Positions 926 to 21,568 of a stretch of DNA of 24,000 nt are shown piece after piece; the first letter of the stretch is position 1; every line of letters starts with the position of its first letter. Under the pieces are notes generated by a model. It was not told the DNA's origin, did not search any database, and saw only the letters and a list, made by a program, of their open reading frames with translations. The stretch is from Candidatus Bathyarchaeia archaeon. Lineage in GTDB: Archaea > Thermoproteota > Bathyarchaeia > 40CM-2-53-6. The translations under genes and the position numbers were made by a program. Where the stretch lies: NCBI GenBank assembly GCA_050013255.1, contig JBEKFP010000001.1:695048-719047 (forward strand). The letters run 5' to 3'.

Positions 926-1318
926 ATGAAGAAGCGTATCAAACTAGAATTCTTTGATCGACAGGGTATGAAACATAGCATTGCAATTGAAGGCGAAGTT
1001 ACAGCCGACAAAGTCAACCACTTGCTAGAGTACGCTGAGATCGTGGCCGGTTCAAATCAGAGAGCCCCATTACTGCCCGGAACCCAGGATAGTAAGATAA
1101 GTAGATTGTTGGATGTAATCAACACGCGGCTAGTGGACCGTAGCTTTGATTCACGTGAAATTTTGCAGGCTTACAGGGAAGCTTGGGGGGATGATTTTAC
1201 GCTCGGGGCCGTATCGACCTACTTGTCCCGTTTGGTTGATCGGGGAACGTTGGAGAGGACTGGTTCGGCGTCCCACTGGTTCTATAAGCTTAAGCCTTCT
1301 CCGACTCTTTCTCCGTAA
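926..1318 (+). CDS. Hypothetical small protein with C-terminal winged-helix-like region
   Basis: 130-aa ATG ORF from the track. The C-terminal half (REILQAYREAWGDDFTLGAVSTYLSRLVDRGTLERTG..WFYKL) has a helix-turn-helix plus wing pattern. No family recognised. Confidence 0.55.
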   Translation: MKKRIKLEFFDRQGMKHSIAIEGEVTADKVNHLLEYAEIVAGSNQRAPLLPGTQDSKISRLLDVINTRLVDRSFDSREILQAYREAWGDDFTLGAVSTYLSRLVDRGTLERTGSASHWFYKLKPSPTLSP

Positions 1319-2027
1319 CCTCCGTGCCGGCGGGCTGCAGGGCAGAACGGGCCGTCTCGCTCAACTTATACCTGAATGGGGCTCGGTTTGATTCGCGGTC
1401 CACATACCCTTCCAAGTACAATTTCTTCATCAGCCGCGAGGTGTGCTCCCTCGACTTCCTTAGCCGTTGCCCTAGTTCGGGCGCCGCCTTCAAGCCTTCA
1501 GCGTTCAAAATCATGAGTGTCTCACGCTCCGTGGGTGTCAACGAGGACAGGATGTCTCCTTCACTGACGACGCCACCCAAGTTCGTGCGTTTAGTCGGGG
1601 GTTGGACTACTGCACCTATGTGTGGCAGGGAGGCGAACCTAGCTTTCAAATTCTCAAGGTCGGCTACGAAACGTTTGTCATTGCTTAGGACTTCTTCGAG
1701 GCGCTTGAGCAGCTGAAGGTTGGACGAGCGAAGCGCCACCTGCTCCCATTCCACCCCACCAATGCGCGTTTTCAAGTCATCCACCTCACTCTGCGCTTGG
1801 CTGACGACGGACTCGGATTGCTCAATGCGGGACGTAAGGGCGTCCACAATTACGTTGATGATTGAGGCTGATTCCATAAGGGCCTGCTTACTTTGTTTGA
1901 AGGCGTGGACAGCCTTGGCTGCTAAGAGGACGAGGATTACGAGGACGGCGGCAGAAACTGCGTCCACAGCGATTGTGAATGGGTCCAAGGTGGATGAGAC
2001 CTTACCGATTAGGTATTTCAAAGTCAT
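1290..2027 (-). CDS. Membrane-anchored coiled-coil protein with C-terminal MarR/TrmB-like wHTH
   Basis: 245-aa ORF with an N-terminal hydrophobic helix (AVDAVSAAVLVILVLLAAKAV) and a long charged helical middle. The C-terminus LTPTERETLMILNAEG..APELGQRLRKSREHTSRLMKKLYLEGYVDRE is typical of a wHTH. Its 3' end overlaps the convergent 926..1318 gene by 29 nt. Confidence 0.6.
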   Translation of the reverse strand: MTLKYLIGKVSSTLDPFTIAVDAVSAAVLVILVLLAAKAVHAFKQSKQALMESASIINVIVDALTSRIEQSESVVSQAQSEVDDLKTRIGGVEWEQVALRSSNLQLLKRLEEVLSNDKRFVADLENLKARFASLPHIGAVVQPPTKRTNLGGVVSEGDILSSLTPTERETLMILNAEGLKAAPELGQRLRKSREHTSRLMKKLYLEGYVDRESNRAPFRYKLSETARSALQPAGTEVTEKESEKA

Positions 2028-2055
2028 TTACACGTGTGATGTCACACTGGTCGTT

Positions 2056-2093
2056 TGACGTCACAATGATGACGCGGTGATGAAAGTATGATG
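2056..2093. promoter_or_regulatory. Helically phased TGA(C/T)G motif array (candidate operator)
   Basis: TGACG at 2056 and TGATG at 2067, 2078 and 2089 give start-to-start spacing of exactly 11 nt, three times over. The array sits in the 2028..2257 intergenic region upstream of the 245-aa wHTH gene. Confidence 0.35.
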
Positions 2094-3288: not shown

Positions 3289-6200
3289 ATGGCAGCAACT
3301 GTTCTCAGCGAGCACGATGCGTATTTCCAACGCCTCAAAGAGCAGTTGGATAGAATTTACGATCTTGCTAGGCAGGCGAGGGCGAAAGGGTTCGACCCCT
3401 CACCAGAACCTGAATCCCTACTGACCCATGATGTCGCAGAGCGTGTCGAGAAGGCTGTTGGCCCAGTTGGAGTAGCGTCCCGAATCCGTGAGCTCTCGGA
3501 TGTCATGCAGCGCGAGCTTGTCGCGCTCAAGATTGCTGAGGAAATTGCCCTCGGCAAGTATGGAGGTATAGAGGAAGGGGCAGCGGAGCAGGCTGTGCGG
3601 ACCGCTTCAGCCATACTAGATGAAGGGGTGACCGCGGCGCCGATAGAGGGAATCTCCAGCGTCCGCATTAGAACAAATCAGGATGGGAGCAGGTATCTTG
3701 CGGTCTACTTTGCCGGCCCCATAAGGTCCGCAGGCGGCACCGATATGGCTCTTATTCTCGTTATCGCCGATTACGTTCGCCATCAACTCGGCTTGGGTAA
3801 GTACAAGGCTACGGAACTTGAAGCGAAACGATTCGTGGAAGAGCTCCGCATCTATGAGAGAGAAGTCGCCAGATTTCAATTCAAAGTCTCGGATGAGGAG
3901 TTGTTCAACGCCATCATGCGGCTGCCGGTGGAGGTTAACGGGGTTGAAACCGACCCGGTCGAGGTGAGCGCGTACCGAAATGTTCCGAGGGTAGATACCA
4001 ACAGAGTCAGGGGTGGGGCGCTCAGGGTCGTTCACGATGGTTTGATTGGGAGAAGCCACAAGGTACTGAAGATTGTCGACAGTCTCGGTATCGAAGGGTG
4101 GAGTTGGCTGAGGGAGATTAAGCCCCCCGTCGCTGAGGCGGAGGAGGCGCGTGAGTTCATGTTCATGGAGGACGTTCTCGCAGGCCGGCCGATATTCTCC
4201 TTCCCACAGTTCACAGGAGGCTTTAGGCTTAGATATGGACGGGCTCGAAACACGGGGCTTGCGGCCATCGGGCTCCATCCATCAACTATGCTGGTCCTTG
4301 GAAAGTTCATTGCAGTTGGGACGCAATTGAGGCTTGAGAAGCCTGGAAAAGCGGGAATTGCTGCGACGGTCGACTCCATCGAACCCCCAATCGTGAAACT
4401 GAACGACGGATCCGTCGTAAGGCTCTTCGACCCTAAGGAAGCGGAAAGGCTGCTTAATTCAATCAGCAAAATCCTCTTCCTCGGTGACATTCTTGTGGGG
4501 TTCGGGGAATTCCTTGAGAACAACCGCCCCCTGCTACCGTCGGGTTTTGTTGAAGAATGGTGGCGTGAACTCGTTAGGCTTGAGGCTGCGAACTACGGCG
4601 GCCTTGAGGCTTTCGCGAAACATGTCGGTGTGAATGGAACCGAACTGATCGATTGGGTTGCAGACTCAGGTGGAACCTTCCCAACCACCGAGGACGCACT
4701 GCGCATCGCGAGACACTCCAAAATACCGTTACACCCGAGGTACACGTACTTCTGGGAGAATATTGCCCCCCAAGACTTCGACCAGTTACGCTCTAGGCTG
4801 ATGGACAAGGGCCAAACAGAAGCCTCCCCTAGGCGAATCGTGACTAGGAAAGAACCCCTAACCAAGGCTATTCTGGAGAACCTCTGCATCCCACACAATG
4901 TCGACGGCGAATCCATTGTAATCGAGGCGGAGGCGCCCATACTGTACGAATGCCTCGGCCTGTCTTCCCCTGCGAAACCACTTGAGGGTGGAGACGTCTT
5001 CCAAAAGATCGCCCAAGCATCGGCCATACAAGTGATGAGGAAGGCCCCGGTTTACGTGGGCGCTAGGATGGGGCGGCCGGAAAAGGCAAAACGGCGGGAA
5101 ATGCGGCCATTAGTCCACTGCCTCTTCCCAGTGGGGTTAGCTGGGGGCCCAAGGAGAAGTATCGTGGAGGCGGCCACGGAGCATTCTGTTATTTCCGTCG
5201 AAATAGCGTATCGTAAATGCGGCGGCTGCGGCAACATAACCCACCTCAACTTCTGTGAAAGATGCGGCGAGAAAACCGCGAAAGTTTTTGTCTGCCCGAA
5301 ATGTGGCGCTGAGGGCGCCAACAAGACCTGCCCCAACTGCCGGAGCATTTCGCGAGCGTACACGGAGAGAAGTGTGCCGCTTAGAGACTTGTTGAATTCA
5401 GCGGAAAGAAAACTCTCCCTGACGGTGATCCCTGAGGCTGTGAAAGGAGTGCGGGGGTTGACTAACGATGCTAAAGCCCCAGAACCCCTCGAGAAAGGCC
5501 TACTACGCGCGAAACATGACGTATCCGTCTTCAAAGATGGGACGGTTCGCTTTGACGCAACCAACGCGCCCCTCACACACTTCAAACCGGCCGAGGTCGG
5601 CGTTGAGGTTGAGAAACTTCAAGCGCTAGGCTACAACGTGGACATGAACGGCGAACCCCTCAAGTCGGCCGAGCAGTGCTGCGCTCTCAAAGTGCACGAT
5701 ATCATAGTGACCGAACAGTGCGGCGACTATTTTGTCAGGGTTGCAAAGTTCCTCGATGAACTACTACAAACCTTCTACGGTCTACCCCCATTCTACCAAG
5801 CAAGAACGAGGCAGGACATAGTCGGCCAACTGGTCGTCGGCCTCTCACCCCACACCTCAGTCGGAGTCATAGGCCGCATAATCGGCTTCACCCGCGCCGC
5901 CGTCTGCTTCGCACACCCCTTCTGGCACGCTACCAAGCGCAGGGATTGTGACGGTGATGAGGATTCTGTTAGCTTAGCTTTGGATATTTTGCTGAATTTC
6001 TCGAGGCAGTATCTGCCTTCAAGGATTGGGGGTATTATGGATGCGCCGCTCTTGTTGTCGGCGGCCATCAAGCCCAGCGAGATTGCACGTCAGGCCTTCA
6101 ACCTTGAAACCGTGCAGCGCCTACCACTGAAATTTTTCGAGGAGACGCAGATACGTACGGATCCGAAGGCGTTGACGGGGTTAATCGAGACGGTGCAGAA

Positions 6201-8503: not shown

Positions 8504-9214
8504 TTGTGCGCACAATTTGTGGTTTCGTTGGCCGACGGACTGTTTGCCAGGCGAAGCGTGGCGTTAACTGGTGCGGCCGTTTTTGGGAGCTTGGCGGCTC
8601 TAACAACAATTGTGCTTCCCGCCAACATTCAGCCCGCATTCCCATTATTGAGCTTCCTACGTTTTGATCCGGCTGAATTGTTCGATGTCCTAGCCTTCCT
8701 AATCTTCGGGCCTATACCCGCGCTGATAACCGCCACCGTTCACTGGGCAATCCTTGCAGAAACTGGAACTAATGGTATCTTGGGCCCGACGGGGAAGTTC
8801 GCCGCAGTCTTGTCGACGCTGTTAGGGCTATGGTTAGGAAGCATGGCATATCGGCGCATAGCACAAAAAAGCACTCGCACTTCTCTGGCTCTAGGCACGA
8901 TGCTGGGTTTCGCAGCTTTAGCTCGTGTCGGGTTGATGCTTGTCGTGAACTATTTCATTTTCACGTACATTGGGCCAGTTATTTTTGGAATCAATTACCT
9001 CGGCTTCAGCCAAAAATCGCTAGCCGCGGTGGGAATGCAGTTCGCGAACTCTTCGCAGGTGCTTTGGGCGATGCTCCTCTTCACGAGCATCTTCAACGGC
9101 TTGCACGCCGCCTTCTCCGTGGTAATCCCATGCTTGATTTTCACGCCCTTGAGTTTGAAGGTTCCTGAAATCGCCTCAGGCCATCCTTGGATTAGCAAGT
9201 TCACATCCCACTAG
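8504..9214 (+). CDS. Polytopic membrane protein, ECF-transporter S-component-like (substrate unknown)
   Basis: 236 aa with a TTG start and 5-6 hydrophobic helices. FDPAELFDVLAFLIFGPIPALITA resembles the conserved helix-1/2 region (..FGP..G) of ECF S components. The assignment is from memory, not a search. Confidence 0.45.
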   Translation: MCAQFVVSLADGLFARRSVALTGAAVFGSLAALTTIVLPANIQPAFPLLSFLRFDPAELFDVLAFLIFGPIPALITATVHWAILAETGTNGILGPTGKFAAVLSTLLGLWLGSMAYRRIAQKSTRTSLALGTMLGFAALARVGLMLVVNYFIFTYIGPVIFGINYLGFSQKSLAAVGMQFANSSQVLWAMLLFTSIFNGLHAAFSVVIPCLIFTPLSLKVPEIASGHPWISKFTSH

Positions 9215-10841: not shown

Positions 10842-11069
10842 GTGCACCGAAAGATACTCAGGGCAAAACAATTTAGAGGCAAGCGGGTGAGTTTGGGTGG
10901 GGTGTTTGAATTAGCATCGCCTAGGGAAAGCCACGATAAAGTGCTCCAGCTTCTGGAGCAGCATACTAAGTGGTTTTCAGAATCAATTCCGCTGATTGCA
11001 TCGGAGAACGTTCCCAGCCCCGCGGTTCGCGAAGCTATAGTTTCAGACTTCGGGAATCGCTACGCGGAA
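10842..11069 (+). CDS. glyA: Serine hydroxymethyltransferase, exon 1 (ends ...SDFGNRYAE)
   Basis: IPLIASENVPSPAVREAIVSDFGNRYAE aligns to the E. coli GlyA segment [28 protein letters not shown]. An in-frame TAG follows at 11070. The start is uncertain: GTG 10842 or GTG 10887. Confidence 0.85.
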
Positions 11070-11103
11070 TAGGCTTAAGCCGATCAGGCTTAGGCCTCCG
11101 TAG
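11070..11103 (+). other. Candidate bulge-helix-bulge (BHB) intron inside the glyA mRNA, 34 nt
   Basis: TAGGCTTAAGCCGATCAGGCTTAGGCCTCCGTAG. Central 4-bp helix 11064-11067 / 11098-11101. 3-nt bulges at 11068-11070 and 11102-11104. An 11-bp intron hairpin 11071-11081 / 11087-11097 with loop GAUCA. Removing these 34 nt joins RYAE to GWVGERVYAGC in frame. Confidence 0.7.
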
Positions 11104-12264
11104 GGATGGGTTGGGGAACGCGTATACGCGGGCTGCGTATACATAGACCAAGTTGAGAGGCTCTGCATAGACCTAGCAAAGGACCTATTCCGGGCCGAAT
11201 TCGCGGACGTTAGGCCAGTCTCTGGGGTTTGCGCAAACCTCGTGGTTTACACCACTTTCACAAACCCCGGCGACCGCATGCTCGCTTTAGCTATACCAAA
11301 CGGCGGCCACATCTCGAGTGGGCGCAAAGATTTCTCGGGAACTGCAGGCTCGGTCCACGGCTTGGAAGTAGAATACTTTCCCTTCGACCGTCATGAAATG
11401 AACATCGACGTCGACAAGGCGAAGCAGAAAATCGAGAAGATGGTCAAGGAGGAGAATAAGCCGCCCAAACTTGGGATGTTTGGTGCAAGCCTCTTCCTCT
11501 TCCCCCAACCCCTGAAGGAGCTAGCTGAGTCATTACATAATGTTGGTGCGACCGTCGCCTACGACGCGGCACATGTTGCGGGGCTCATTGCGGGAGGAAT
11601 CTTCCAAGACCCACTGAGGGAAGGTGCCGACGTAGTATGCCTGAGCACCCACAAAACGCTCTTCGGCCCGCAGGGAGGGGCGGTACTCTCCTTCGAGAAA
11701 TACGCGGAGCAAATCAAGAAGGCAACGTTTCCGTCAAACACGAGCAACCACCACCTGCATCACCTAGCTGGGAAAGCGGTTGCTTTCGCGGAAATGTTAG
11801 AGTTCGGAAAACAGTACGCTAAGCAAGTTGTGGCTAATGCCAAAGCCCTGGGTCAAGCGTTGCATGAACGAGGCCTTAACCTTCTGGGCGAGCACAAGGG
11901 TTTCACTGAGTCGCATCAAATCGCAGTCGACGTATCCAAGTATGGCTTGGGGGGAGACATGGAGAGAGCACTTGAAAGCGCCAACATAATCGTCAACCGC
12001 CAACTATTACCCGGGGACATTCAAGCGGGAAGGCACTACCAAAACCCAGGCGGCATCCGCATCGGCACCTCGGAAATCACCAGGATCGGGATGAAGGAGA
12101 ACCAAATGGTCGAAGTGGCTGAGCTAATCAAGAGAATCGTCATCGACAAGCAGGACCCTAAGAAAGTGAAGGCCGATGTGCTAGAGTTTAGGAAAGATTT
12201 CCAGAAGGTTCACTACTGCTTCGAGAGCGCAAAGAAAGCCTACGAATACATCAAAGTACGGTAA
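11104..12264 (+). CDS. glyA: Serine hydroxymethyltransferase, exon 2 (frame open from 11104; track lists only 11242..12264)
   Basis: The frame reads GWVGERVYAGCVYIDQVERLCIDLAKDLFRAEFADVRPVSGVCANLVVY..., colinear with E. coli [49 protein letters not shown]. The PLP-lysine block STHKTLFGPQGG is present. Confidence 0.88.
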   Translation, partial: GWVGERVYAGCVYIDQVERLCIDLAKDLFRAEFADVRPVSGVCANLVVYTTFTNPGDRMLALAIPNGGHISSGRKDFSGTAGSVHGLEVEYFPFDRHEMNIDVDKAKQKIEKMVKEENKPPKLGMFGASLFLFPQPLKELAESLHNVGATVAYDAAHVAGLIAGGIFQDPLREGADVVCLSTHKTLFGPQGGAVLSFEKYAEQIKKATFPSNTSNHHLHHLAGKAVAFAEMLEFGKQYAKQVVANAKALGQALHERGLNLLGEHKGFTESHQIAVDVSKYGLGGDMERALESANIIVNRQLLPGDIQAGRHYQNPGGIRIGTSEITRIGMKENQMVEVAELIKRIVIDKQDPKKVKADVLEFRKDFQKVHYCFESAKKAYEYIKVR

Positions 12265-12278
12265 TTGGTGGTTCGAGG

Positions 12279-13061
12279 ATAATTACGAATCCTAAGGTCA
12301 CCGTCATAACTGGAGCGAGTAGCGGCATAGGTGCCGCACTAGCGAAAGAGCTGGGGGCCGGGGGCCACCGGCTAGTTCTCGGAGCCCGCCGAGAAAAGGA
12401 ACTGAAAAATGTCGCAGCACATGCTGGAACTGAAGCAATCCCAGTCGTCACGGATGTTACTCGCCGGCGGGACGTCGAACATTTACGCGATGTTGCAATT
12501 GAGAAATTCGGTCACGTTGATGTTTGGGTGAACAATGCGGGCCGCGGCTCTGGGAAGATTGTGATGGAGTTGACGGAGGCGGAATTGGATGAGATGATTG
12601 CTGTTAACCTGAAATCCGTTTACTATGGGATGCAGGCCATCGTTCCGCATTTTCAGCAGAGGGGCGAGGGACACCTCATCAACGTATCCTCCTTCCTGGG
12701 AAGGGTTCCTTTGGCAACCTACCGGTCCGCCTACAATGCGGCTAAGGCGGGGGCGAATATGCTAACCGCAAATCTGCGCATGGACCTGAGGACGAAATAT
12801 CCACGGATACATGTTTCATTAGTTTTGGCGGGGTTCGTTGATACCGATTTTCACAAAGTCGCAGCCACCCCTTTCCCCGTAAAGGCGGGAACCCGCGTCG
12901 GCGAAGCGGTGGTTCAATCCGCTGAAGAGGTCGCCGAGCAGATCGCATCCCTCATAGAGCATCCAGTCGCGGAACTCTACACCAACCCAGGCCTCAGAGA
13001 TCTTACGGTGCGATACTATCAAGACGTAGGCGCATTCGAAGAACGAATGGGCCAAAGATAG
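12279..13061 (+). CDS. Short-chain dehydrogenase/reductase (SDR); 5' end lacks a canonical start codon in frame
   Basis: The frame reads IITNPKVTVITGASSGIGAALAKEL... (TGxxxGxG), NNAG at the track start 12528, and a catalytic S...YNAAK. There is no ATG/GTG/TTG in this frame between the stop at 12189 and 12528. Confidence 0.8.
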   Translation: MITNPKVTVITGASSGIGAALAKELGAGGHRLVLGARREKELKNVAAHAGTEAIPVVTDVTRRRDVEHLRDVAIEKFGHVDVWVNNAGRGSGKIVMELTEAELDEMIAVNLKSVYYGMQAIVPHFQQRGEGHLINVSSFLGRVPLATYRSAYNAAKAGANMLTANLRMDLRTKYPRIHVSLVLAGFVDTDFHKVAATPFPVKAGTRVGEAVVQSAEEVAEQIASLIEHPVAELYTNPGLRDLTVRYYQDVGAFEERMGQR

Positions 13062-15325: not shown

Positions 15326-15988
15326 TCATGGCATGTTCTTGGTTCTTTCCGAGTTGGGCATTCGGACCTTCAGGATTTTGAATCCTAATTGGACTGCTGG
15401 GCCTATGGCGAGGGCGGATACTAGCGTTCCGAGCCATGCGGGCCCCCCTAGCAACCAACCGACCACGACCACGCTTATCTCGATTATTGTGCGCGCGATT
15501 CGCACGCTAGTTTTCCCGAGGCGTGACAGCGCGAGCATCAAAGTGTCCCTCGGCCCAGCCCCAGCGTTCACTCCAATGTAGATCGCGGTCGCAAATCCCA
15601 TGATCAAAACGCCGAGGAGCAGGTATCCCAACTGAACGAGGACGGAACCGGGAACAAGCGGAACGTAGGGCCTCAGGACGTCGACCCATACGCCGATGAA
15701 GATCATGTTCGCGACCGTCCCCCAACCCAACGGCTCTTTGAGGGCTACGTCGACGAGAATTATGATGAACGCGACGCCAATGTTGGATTCGCCAAGCGTG
15801 ATCGGTAAATGGTACGTTAACGCCATTTGGAGAACGTCCCAGGGGTCCAAGCCTAGGCTCGCCTGAACCATCACATCAATCGCCAACCCGAAGAGCAGAA
15901 AACCAATTTGAATAACGAAGAAGTCCCAGGCGAACCGCCTCCAACCCACCCAACTGAACTTGAAGAACCTACTGTTCATGGTTCGCAA
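15326..15988 (-). CDS. YczE-like integral membrane protein (COG2364-type)
   Basis: 220 aa. GLDPWDVLQMAL..ITLGE and GAGPRDTLMLALSRLGKTSVRIARTIIEISVVVVGWLLGGPAWLGTLVSALAIGPAVQ match the B. subtilis YczE pattern as I remember it. ATG 15979 is an alternative start. Confidence 0.7.
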   Translation of the reverse strand: MRTMNSRFFKFSWVGWRRFAWDFFVIQIGFLLFGLAIDVMVQASLGLDPWDVLQMALTYHLPITLGESNIGVAFIIILVDVALKEPLGWGTVANMIFIGVWVDVLRPYVPLVPGSVLVQLGYLLLGVLIMGFATAIYIGVNAGAGPRDTLMLALSRLGKTSVRIARTIIEISVVVVGWLLGGPAWLGTLVSALAIGPAVQLGFKILKVRMPNSERTKNMP

Positions 15989-16049
15989 GTCTGAACACCT
16001 GCCCGCAGAGTCTCCATTCTTCCATGGCGCATTGTCCGTTAGGTTTCGT

Positions 16050-16631
16050 ATGGGGGCGCCTTCCAGCTGTGTTCTTCATATAGATGTGCCAGTCTTGGTG
16101 GGAGCGGTTCCCTTGGGTTCCCGCATCTTGCTCTGCATCTGTTTGATTGCAGGAGTACTGCTCATGATGATTTCAAGTTCCAATGTCGCGGCGCAAAGCT
16201 GCCAAAAGGTGACCGTTTCATCCAATTATCCTGAGCAGGCCGCTCCGAAAGAACAGGTACAAGTGACTACGACCATAGCCGGCTCATGTACCTCGGGCCC
16301 CGAAGACTACTTCTCGGTGAGAGTGGATGTTACGGATCGTGTTTCCAAGGCTCTACTCTCATCGAACAGCGGTCCGATAGGCTACAGTACCACCAATTTC
16401 TCAGTGAACGTACAGAATTCAGTGACAACGCCAACAGGCAATCTGACGTGGCTAATAGAAATCGATAGTTACCTGATTATAGACGCGCAGGAATCCCATT
16501 TGAATTCAACAACAGGCAGGATTCAAGTTGGCAGCACGCCCATACCTGAATTCCAGGCCGCCCAACCGATCGTACTCCTACTAGCATTAGCCGCAACATT
16601 AAGCCTGAACCGACGGAAACTTCCCAAATAA
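16050..16631 (+). CDS. Secreted protein with C-terminal PEF-CTERM-type (archaeosortase) sorting signal
   Basis: ATG 16050 is preferred because track start 15960 would overlap the minus-strand permease gene. The signal peptide is ..ILLCICLIAGVLLMMISSSNVAAQS. The extreme C-terminus PIPEFQAAQPIVLLLALAATLSLNRRKLPK has a PEF motif, a hydrophobic helix and a basic cluster. Confidence 0.65.
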   Translation: MGAPSSCVLHIDVPVLVGAVPLGSRILLCICLIAGVLLMMISSSNVAAQSCQKVTVSSNYPEQAAPKEQVQVTTTIAGSCTSGPEDYFSVRVDVTDRVSKALLSSNSGPIGYSTTNFSVNVQNSVTTPTGNLTWLIEIDSYLIIDAQESHLNSTTGRIQVGSTPIPEFQAAQPIVLLLALAATLSLNRRKLPK

Positions 16632-21157: not shown

Positions 21158-21568
21158 TCAGATGCACGAGGGTTCGAGCAAGGGGGGCATAGTACCATAG
21201 AGTCCAGAAATGGCAACTGCGGTCAACCAGAGACAGTTTAGCGAATGCTGCTGAGAAAGAACTAACGCAGTTATTGACTTACCCATCCCGGCTTGCACAG
21301 CAGGGTCGCTTTTCGTTATCTTATCAAGATCGACGTGAACCCACATGTTACGGTAGTCAGTTCTGATCTTGTTCAACACACACGCTATCTGCGAAGTGAT
21401 CACATTCTTAGAACCTGAGTAGCTGATTGACTCCTCCCACTTCATTCCTTTCGCTTTATTCTTGCCCATTCCATGATCTAGGCAATAGAATCTATGTGCA
21501 GGTTCCGCACAAGTTCCACTGACGATGGCCGCGGAAGCAAACATTCCACTAAAGTAAGCCTGAGTCAC
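21158..21568 (-). CDS. Hypothetical protein (136 aa from GTG; frame stays open upstream to 21682 without a start)
   Basis: Track ORF with no recognised family and a hydrophobic C-terminus (LWLTAVAISGLYG). An ATG at 21686 lies in the +1 frame; dropping one T from the TTT at 21659..21661 would fuse MNGFDTTRS to QVNPSQAESNIKGLKLG.... Confidence 0.4.
   Translation of the reverse strand: MTQAYFSGMFASAAIVSGTCAEPAHRFYCLDHGMGKNKAKGMKWEESISYSGSKNVITSQIACVLNKIRTDYRNMWVHVDLDKITKSDPAVQAGMGKSITALVLSQQHSLNCLWLTAVAISGLYGTMPPLLEPSCI

Follow-up and report, generated by a model that had tools for sequence, protein, structure and literature searches.

The 24,000-nucleotide (nt) stretch analysed here (the window; positions 695,048 to 719,047 of contig JBEKFP010000001.1, assembly GCA_050013255.1, Candidatus Bathyarchaeia archaeon) contains glyA, the gene for serine hydroxymethyltransferase (SHMT), as two separate open reading frames (ORFs). 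In the ORF list, the upstream frame (10842..11072) closes with ...FGNRYAE and an in-frame TAG at 11070-72. The downstream frame is listed as 11242..12264 but is actually open from 11104, where it reads GWVGERVYAGCVYIDQVE. The 34 extra nt in between, 11070..11103 (TAGGCTTAAGCCGATCAGGCTTAGGCCTCCGTAG), have the in-frame TAG as their first codon and lie inside an otherwise intact SHMT gene. An earlier note on this DNA, written from the sequence alone, had read them as an intron of the archaeal bulge-helix-bulge (BHB) type, and its ORFs, coordinates, base pairs and insert of length 3n+1 with an in-frame TAG all check out on the sequence. When 11069 is joined to 11104, a single frame results (...RYAE/GWVGER...), as that note had predicted for excision of 11070..11103. 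The spliced product scores 458.4 bits against the NCBIfam model NF000586 (cut-off 335) over model positions 3-403 of 404, which places it within the SHMT family. It also aligns with M. jannaschii SHMT (4uqv) at an E-value of 4e-140 and gap-free across the junction (query, ...dfgnryaegwvgervyagc...; 4uqv, ...dfmhryaeglpgkrlyqgc...). The start codon of exon 1 is uncertain, with in-frame candidates at GTG 10842, GTG 10887, TTG 10893 and GTG 10902.

The insert and its flanks can be folded into a BHB motif, the elements of which are located in Table 1. The central helix H consists of exactly 4 base pairs (bp), G11064-U11101, C11065-G11100, G11066-C11099 and G11067-C11098. The outer exon-exon helix h begins with C11063-G11105 and, with A11106 bulged, continues through A11062-U11107, U11061-G11108 and C11060-G11109. 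The minimum free energy (MFE) fold of 11050..11120 reaches –29.7 kcal/mol (z = –3.25 versus shuffles) and retains the 11-bp intron hairpin h′.

Table 1. Position of the glyA exons, the putative intron and the elements of the predicted BHB motif in the window
Feature	Coordinates	Strand	Description
glyA exon 1	10887..11069	+	N-terminal ~60 residues, ending ...SDFGNRYAE; full-length homologues (438-446 aa) align from about here
Intron (putative)	11070..11103	+	34 nt; homologous inserts at the identical site in at least 87 distinct sequences
glyA exon 2	11104..12264	+	GWVGERVYAGC... through the stop codon
Helix H, 5′ strand	11064..11067	+	exon GCGG, codons GCG GAA; partner 11098-11101
Helix H, 3′ strand	11098..11101	+	intron CCGU
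5′ 3-nt bulge	11068..11070	+	AA/U; predicted cleavage 11069/11070
3′ 3-nt bulge	11102..11104	+	AG/G; predicted cleavage 11103/11104
Intron hairpin h′	11071..11097	+	stem 11071-11081/11087-11097, 11 bp, one U-G; loop GAUCA 11082-11086; present in MFE and centroid folds
Weak outer helix h, 5′ strand	11060..11063	+	CUAC, exon-exon
Weak outer helix h, 3′ strand	11105..11109	+	GAUGG, exon-exon

The nearest genomes are soil and peat metagenome-assembled genomes (MAGs) labelled Candidatus Bathyarchaeia, including a SPRUCE peat MAG (97% identical) and Microflora Danica MAGs (90-91%). To place the insert in a wider context, metagenomes were scanned for conserved glyA exon ends lying 22-40 nt apart, which yielded at least 117 stretches; ~17 chance matches in unrelated proteins were discarded. 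The distinct intron-bearing SHMT junctions among the matches listed, from Bathyarchaeia and related archaea, constitute the set of 87 variants to which the counts below refer. At least 87 distinct glyA sequences therefore carry an insert of 26-39 nt at this exact codon boundary. A protein similarity search provided 19 archaeal species-level loci: 13 possess an insert of 26, 30, 31, 32, 33 or 34 nt between RYAE and GW.GER, and in the remaining six these codons are directly adjacent. The comparison of orthologous glyA loci suggested in the earlier note thus finds the insert either at precisely this site or precisely lacking. Insert length modulo 3 is 0, 1 and 2 in 37, 24 and 26 variants, respectively. 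A stop codon in the exon-1 frame is present in 85 of the 87 inserts, and 79 inserts have it as their first codon (TAG in 77, TAA in 2). Because the inserts fall into all three frames and carry stops, neither read-through nor a single frameshift can yield SHMT. The spliced ORF is complete in 75 loci, with a near-invariant exon protein sequence. Its ratio of nonsynonymous to synonymous substitution rates (dN/dS) is 0.042, 0.048 and 0.057 against relatives L004, L001 and L003, respectively; unreliable-looking values for L016 and L012, from a crude back-translated alignment, were not used. Judged by these ratios, the spliced glyA ORF is under strong purifying selection. In the protein search, all hits of at least 90% identity, and most of those at 83-87%, are only 328-392 residues long and lack the N-terminus, and full-length SHMT proteins (438-446 residues) appear at 69-86% identity to the query. 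Public annotations of the relatives (P0012, P0013, P0047, P0091 and P0121-P0134) likewise give glyA as 315-392 residues with a start inside exon 2, and for the whole intron-bearing clade, public protein sets lack the N-terminal exon and the conserved residues that it encodes.

Base pairing was evaluated across the 87 variants at positions set only by the protein-defined junction, with no folding involved. The four pairs of helix H (exon positions –6..–3, GCGG, against intron positions L-5..L-2, where L is the intron length) are formed in 98%, 100%, 100% and 90% of variants, or 97% of cells overall. At the outermost position, 57 sequences have G:U and 28 have G:C, and L012 shows a true compensation, in which exon GCAG meets intron CUGC (A:U). 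In hairpin h′ (intron position 2+i against L-6-i), for which at least 2 Watson-Crick bp closing the 5′ bulge are expected, the first four pairs are formed in 100%, 100%, 98% and 93% of variants, with exchanges between A:U and G:C. Over the first six h′ pairs, 86% are paired, compared to 20-48% once the 3′ partner is slid by 1-3 nt. Although the introns range from 26 to 39 nt, both bulges measure exactly 3 nt in 87 of 87 variants, with a composition of A, A/G, U/A in the 5′ bulge and A/U, N, G in the 3′ bulge. The second position of helix h is A.A in 74 variants, and pairing (A-U, U-G) resumes only with A11106 bulged; since this helix is codon-constrained, it is invariant and provides no covariation information. 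In a MAFFT alignment of 84 junctions, the explicit BHB structure is paired in 85.3% of cells (30-44% when slid) and helix H in 96.7%. The covariation score of this alignment is 0.312, compared to 0.160 in shuffles, with 0 of 500 shuffles reaching 0.312, and in each of the 11 h′ pairs, both partners have changed among the variants. RNAalifold, given no structure, finds h′ and three of the four H pairs in the same register. Cleavage between the second and third bulge residues is the rule used for cbf5 (PMC2738675), and in glyA variants whose introns end in ...AU, ...UU or ...AA, no junction other than this canonical cut retains the invariant Glu.

A separate feature of the variants is that the first two h′ pairs (A-U, G-C) are much more conserved in sequence than structure alone needs. 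Together with the stop codon at the start of the intron, this may reflect selection for immediate termination on the unspliced mRNA, or a sequence preference of the endonuclease.

These data are consistent with a mechanism in which exon GCGG (11064-67) would pair with intron CCGU (11098-11101) in the transcript to form the 4-bp central helix, with the 11-bp intron hairpin closing the 5′ bulge and the weak exon-exon helix closing the 3′ bulge. The tRNA-splicing endonuclease EndA would then cut between nucleotides 2 and 3 of each bulge (11069/11070 and 11103/11104), and an RtcB-type ligase would join the exons at GAA/GGA, to encode full-length SHMT (...RYAE-GWVGER...); on unspliced mRNA, translation would end at UAG, the first intron codon. 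A broad-specificity (αβ)2 endonuclease that accepts relaxed BHB motifs occurs mainly in TACK archaea, including Bathyarchaeota (PMC7714728), and the host lineage of the window belongs to the TACK archaea. On the comparative evidence, we consider it highly probable that 11070..11103 is a genuine relaxed HBh′-type BHB intron in the glyA pre-mRNA, excised by EndA; we infer both the assignment of EndA and RtcB as the enzymes and the occurrence of splicing in vivo.

Several observations weigh against this interpretation. A collection of ~15 billion proteins does not contain the exact spliced protein in any of five start variants, and a query with the N-terminal junction returned no fragment with >85% identity to the window and none with ≥90% identity to any intron-bearing lineage. 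Neither an EndA nor an RtcB gene is present in the window. Under the strict hBHBh′ definition, the 3′ bulge is closed by an exon-side helix h with two or more Watson-Crick bp in a row (PMC7714728), and the window has a lone C-G beside that bulge, followed by a 1-nt bulge; by its predicted pairing, the glyA motif is of the relaxed HBh′ type and not strict hBHBh′. In 9 of the 87 variants, the H pair beside the 5′ bulge is a G.A mismatch. When the window was scanned permissively for BHB motifs, 2167 hits were obtained versus ~1916 in shuffles, and requiring h′ of at least 8 bp left 45 versus 35. Relaxed BHB geometry is thus frequent by chance, so that the motif alone is not significant and was dropped as stand-alone evidence. 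In addition, the MFE fold of the window pairs the flanks in another register, CUACG (11060-64) with CGUAG (11099-11103), and this competing 5-bp helix is 4.3 kcal/mol more stable than the BHB conformer and abolishes the 3′ bulge. An A.C mismatch, however, disrupts the MFE register of the window in 28 of the 87 variants, the very ones in which the BHB register improves from G:U to G:C. Across variants, the BHB-constrained fold lies a median of 1.0 kcal/mol above the MFE, the window being an outlier at 4.3 (constrained-fold energies are artefactual for a few variants with mismatches in forced pairs, such as L001, so that only medians and the window value were used), and the unconstrained MFE fold already holds all four H pairs in 62 of the 87. 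What takes the feature beyond chance is the coincidence of the motif with the protein-defined junction, and its conservation with covariation in 87 independent variants. The register and the HBh′-type reading put forward in the earlier note are both supported by this conservation.

Viewed in a single window, a 3n+1 insert with an in-frame stop looks like a lesion, and the earlier note had itself raised an assembly artefact, or a pseudogene accompanied by a second intact copy, as ways in which the intron could prove illusory. The comparative data already refute an assembly or sequencing artefact: the same interrupted gene was assembled in many independent projects, in 13 species-level MAGs, with the exon-2 product of the exact window gene called on 13 contigs and the truncated product on ~130 (summed over listed cluster members). 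A decaying pseudogene is refuted in the same way by the 75 intact spliced ORFs, by dN/dS values of ~0.05 (0.04-0.06), by an insert that evolves with compensatory changes, and by the finding of no second archaeal-type glyA copy in intron-bearing genomes. A mobile element was also rejected, as the intron sequence is single-copy within the window and the variants share architecture but not sequence. Translational recoding could in principle skip the insert, by bypassing of the T4 gene 60 type, frameshifting or UAG read-through. The superficial likeness to gene 60 is real, with UAG first in 77 of 87 variants and a stable hairpin right behind it, but not one of the 87 introns has GAA or GAG at its end, where peptidyl-tRNA-Glu could land, so that matching take-off and landing codons are lacking. 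The conserved pairing between exon GCGG and the intron 3′ end would have no role in bypassing, and frameshifting or read-through is at odds with lengths of 26-39 nt in all three frames and with the multiple stops of many inserts. We consider recoding extremely improbable.

A split glyA, in which a ~60-residue N-terminal peptide and a C-terminal protein are translated apart and assemble, with the hairpin as an intercistronic element, would agree with the absence of an observed spliced product from the protein collection and with the practice of gene callers, which annotate only the C-terminal product (328-392 residues) in all close relatives. Such an arrangement is nonetheless scarcely probable: in 79 of the 87 variants, the stretch between 15 nt ahead of the junction and three codons past it is free of in-frame ATG, GTG and TTG, and initiation at GTG 11242, the earliest usable start in the window, would cost the protein 46 conserved residues. 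Moreover, the first exon-2 codons are conserved as Gly-Trp with synonymous variation (GGA/GGT/GGC/GGG), and must therefore be translated, and a split gene leaves the conservation of helix H and of the bulge spacing unexplained. Excision of the insert from RNA by another route, through a different structure-specific RNase and ligase or a self-cleaving hairpin, is accommodated by the weak outer helix and by the H mismatch in some variants, which leave room for non-canonical recognition. We regard it as very unlikely, given a geometry that is exactly EndA-like (a 4-bp helix flanked by two 3-nt bulges that would be cut after their second nucleotide) and that matches the coding junction; with respect to self-cleavage, a conserved core that could form a ribozyme is lacking from these introns of 26-39 nt, whose hairpin is variable, and no Rfam match was found in the window.

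The distribution of the putative BHB intron was examined using a neighbour-joining tree that included 60 SHMTs with the intron and 67 without it, the two samples differing in ascertainment (DNA pattern for the former, protein search for the latter). The window lies in a large intron-bearing crown clade, and deeper intron-bearing branches include a GC-rich group (L106, L173, L174) as well as contigs labelled Thaumarchaeota (L033). Intron presence is clade-structured, intronless clades lie scattered between the intron-bearing ones, and parsimony calls for at least 7 state changes. Two nested intronless genes, L183 (junction at 525-545) and L184 (junction at ~4150-4160), were checked at the DNA level; each sits on an ordinary genomic contig and has a precise junction. 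Their Ala codon is now GCT (GCTG for GCGG), which destroys the H strand. This is what would be expected if the synonymous site were constrained only by intron pairing, with two genes being too few for statistics. Among genes found without the bias of a DNA pattern, GCG occupies this Ala codon in 12 of 13 intron-bearing and 5 of 8 intronless genes, a suggestive difference in a sample too small for a claim. The sequence P0005, nested among intron-bearing sequences, was considered as a possible spliced transcript; this was rejected, because it is genomic DNA with its own neighbouring genes and represents a precise loss. By a crude motif check, cofC and SDR motifs flank glyA only in the closest relatives (L001, L004 and L016). 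Insofar as the flanking genes differ beyond these relatives, the intron appears to persist through changed genomic context. Most likely, judging from the tree and the junctions, the intron is old in the glyA lineage and has been lost precisely several times. Separately, the Bathyarchaeota MAG CAVPLU01 contains two intronless glyA copies (contigs L008 and L015), each 76% identical to the query, which could reflect a duplication or a mixed bin.

The closest known counterpart is the intron of cbf5 in Crenarchaeota; the searchable literature reports no further BHB intron within an archaeal coding sequence, other cases being just "predicted" (PMC7714728, PMC2738675). A 2020 paper likewise names cbf5 as the sole case. 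For pre-mRNA splicing, an endonuclease paper from 2025 refers to the cbf5 work alone, and in a 2026 review of non-canonical splicing, the archaeal BHB pathway appears solely in connection with tRNA. Within the searchable literature, which leaves subscription-only papers outside, no paper joins BHB motifs or the splicing endonuclease with SHMT or glyA, or Bathyarchaeia with such introns; the earlier note's statement that cbf5 is the only known protein-coding case matches this literature. Like glyA, cbf5 (Watanabe et al. 2002; Yokobori et al. 2009, PMC2738675) has a short intron inside a protein-coding gene, a predicted cut between the second and third bulge residues that fits the coding junction, a patchy distribution from gain and loss, and TACK hosts with a hetero-oligomeric endonuclease (for the glyA host, by lineage). 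The two introns are unrelated in sequence, and glyA is a core one-carbon metabolism gene, whereas cbf5 encodes an RNA-modification enzyme. The glyA hosts are mesophilic Bathyarchaeia and relatives from soil, peat and sediment, in contrast to the thermophilic Desulfurococcales and Sulfolobales that harbour the cbf5 intron. For cbf5, cDNA and in vitro cleavage have confirmed splicing, which for glyA is predicted from sequence.

Other systems share particular elements with the glyA motif. The BHB introns of pre-tRNA and pre-rRNA, which are EndA/RtcB substrates, have the same 4-bp helix and two 3-nt bulges on opposite strands, and in the canonical tRNA 37/38 intron the exon likewise pairs with the intron 3′ end and an intron hairpin closes the 5′ bulge. 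The glyA introns, at 26-39 nt, also fall within the range of tRNA introns (11-175 nt). They differ in that there is no tRNA or rRNA body and in that the exon strands are codons, so that helices H and h are protein-constrained and h is sub-standard. Haloferax volcanii HVO_1309 contains a 46-nt BHB intron in the 5′ untranslated region of its mRNA (PMC7714728), an mRNA element of similar size that is processed by the splicing endonuclease; in this euryarchaeon, however, the element occupies an untranslated leader and does not interrupt the reading frame. The IRE1-dependent splicing of HAC1 and XBP1 offers a further likeness, with a small coding intron (26 nt in XBP1), a protein endonuclease, an RtcB-type ligase and a change of frame, but it uses another nuclease and twin stem-loop recognition, and is a demonstrated regulatory switch.

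If EndA does excise the intron, glyA would be only the second protein-coding gene family known with an EndA-spliced intron, cbf5 having been the sole example for more than 20 years. Protein-dependent archaeal mRNA splicing would then be more than a one-gene curiosity, as it would extend to a core metabolic gene and to a different, globally abundant lineage, in a case backed by dozens of covarying variants. The 87 variants constitute a natural mutagenesis series that could define the needs of a relaxed BHB substrate. On the same premise, public annotations systematically truncate glyA and miss its N-terminal exon, and the junction-anchored covariation test could serve as a template for finding more such introns in metagenomes. 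No sign was seen that the intron does more than be tolerated. It might nevertheless act as a gate on SHMT synthesis: translation of unspliced mRNA would stop at the UAG or UAA that opens the intron in 79 of 87 variants, and the amount of SHMT and one-carbon flux would be set by EndA/RtcB activity and by the balance between the BHB and the competing conformer. We think this rather unlikely. The same holds for a broader version, in which BHB introns of protein genes date far back and often escape notice in uncultivated TACK archaea, since gene callers shorten such genes without warning.

Further interrupted genes were sought with a BHB scan for motifs that merge two long open frames, across 0.83 Mb of archaeal loci. 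The scan recovered glyA 36 times; its other hits numbered 62, versus 31 in a reversed-sequence control, and were regarded as noise, the six most plausible proving false on inspection. For comparison with tRNA introns, 56 related loci were searched and contained no tRNA genes, and ARAGORN likewise found no tRNA gene in the window. The SDR gene downstream of glyA was considered as a second interrupted gene and rejected, as it forms one continuous frame. This gene (12264-13061) has no ATG, GTG or TTG ahead of its TGxxxGIG cofactor motif, and codon 12285-12287 is ACG in the window, ATG in L004 (MNPKVTVITGASSGIG) and GCG in L117. The gene may rely on a non-canonical start; otherwise, it is start-defective in this strain.

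The remainder of the window is an ordinary archaeal chromosomal segment, in which genes for PolD DP2, PAC2, CofD, CofC, GNAT and KaiC-like ATPases accompany glyA and the SDR. ORFs of 110-236 residues without a Pfam match at E ≤ 0.001 occur at 926-2058 (+), 2258-2854 (–), 8504-9214 (+), 15326-16631 and 21158-21568 (–). The plus-strand ORFs 1324-1716 and 1720-2058 overlap a minus-strand ORF of 245 residues (1290-2027) with a weak MarR-like hit, leaving the coding strand ambiguous. Near the start of the window, between 540 and 840, three elements resembling origin-recognition boxes (ACCCCT..ATTTCCACT) are located at 551-567, 732-751 and 816-832, two direct and one inverted. They adjoin a minus-strand gene fragment (1-~420) that runs off the window start and in which an Orc1/Cdc6-like Walker A motif, VYGKTGTGKT, can be recognized by eye, and PolD DP2 lies 2.5 kb away. 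From these sequence features, the region is probably a chromosomal replication origin.

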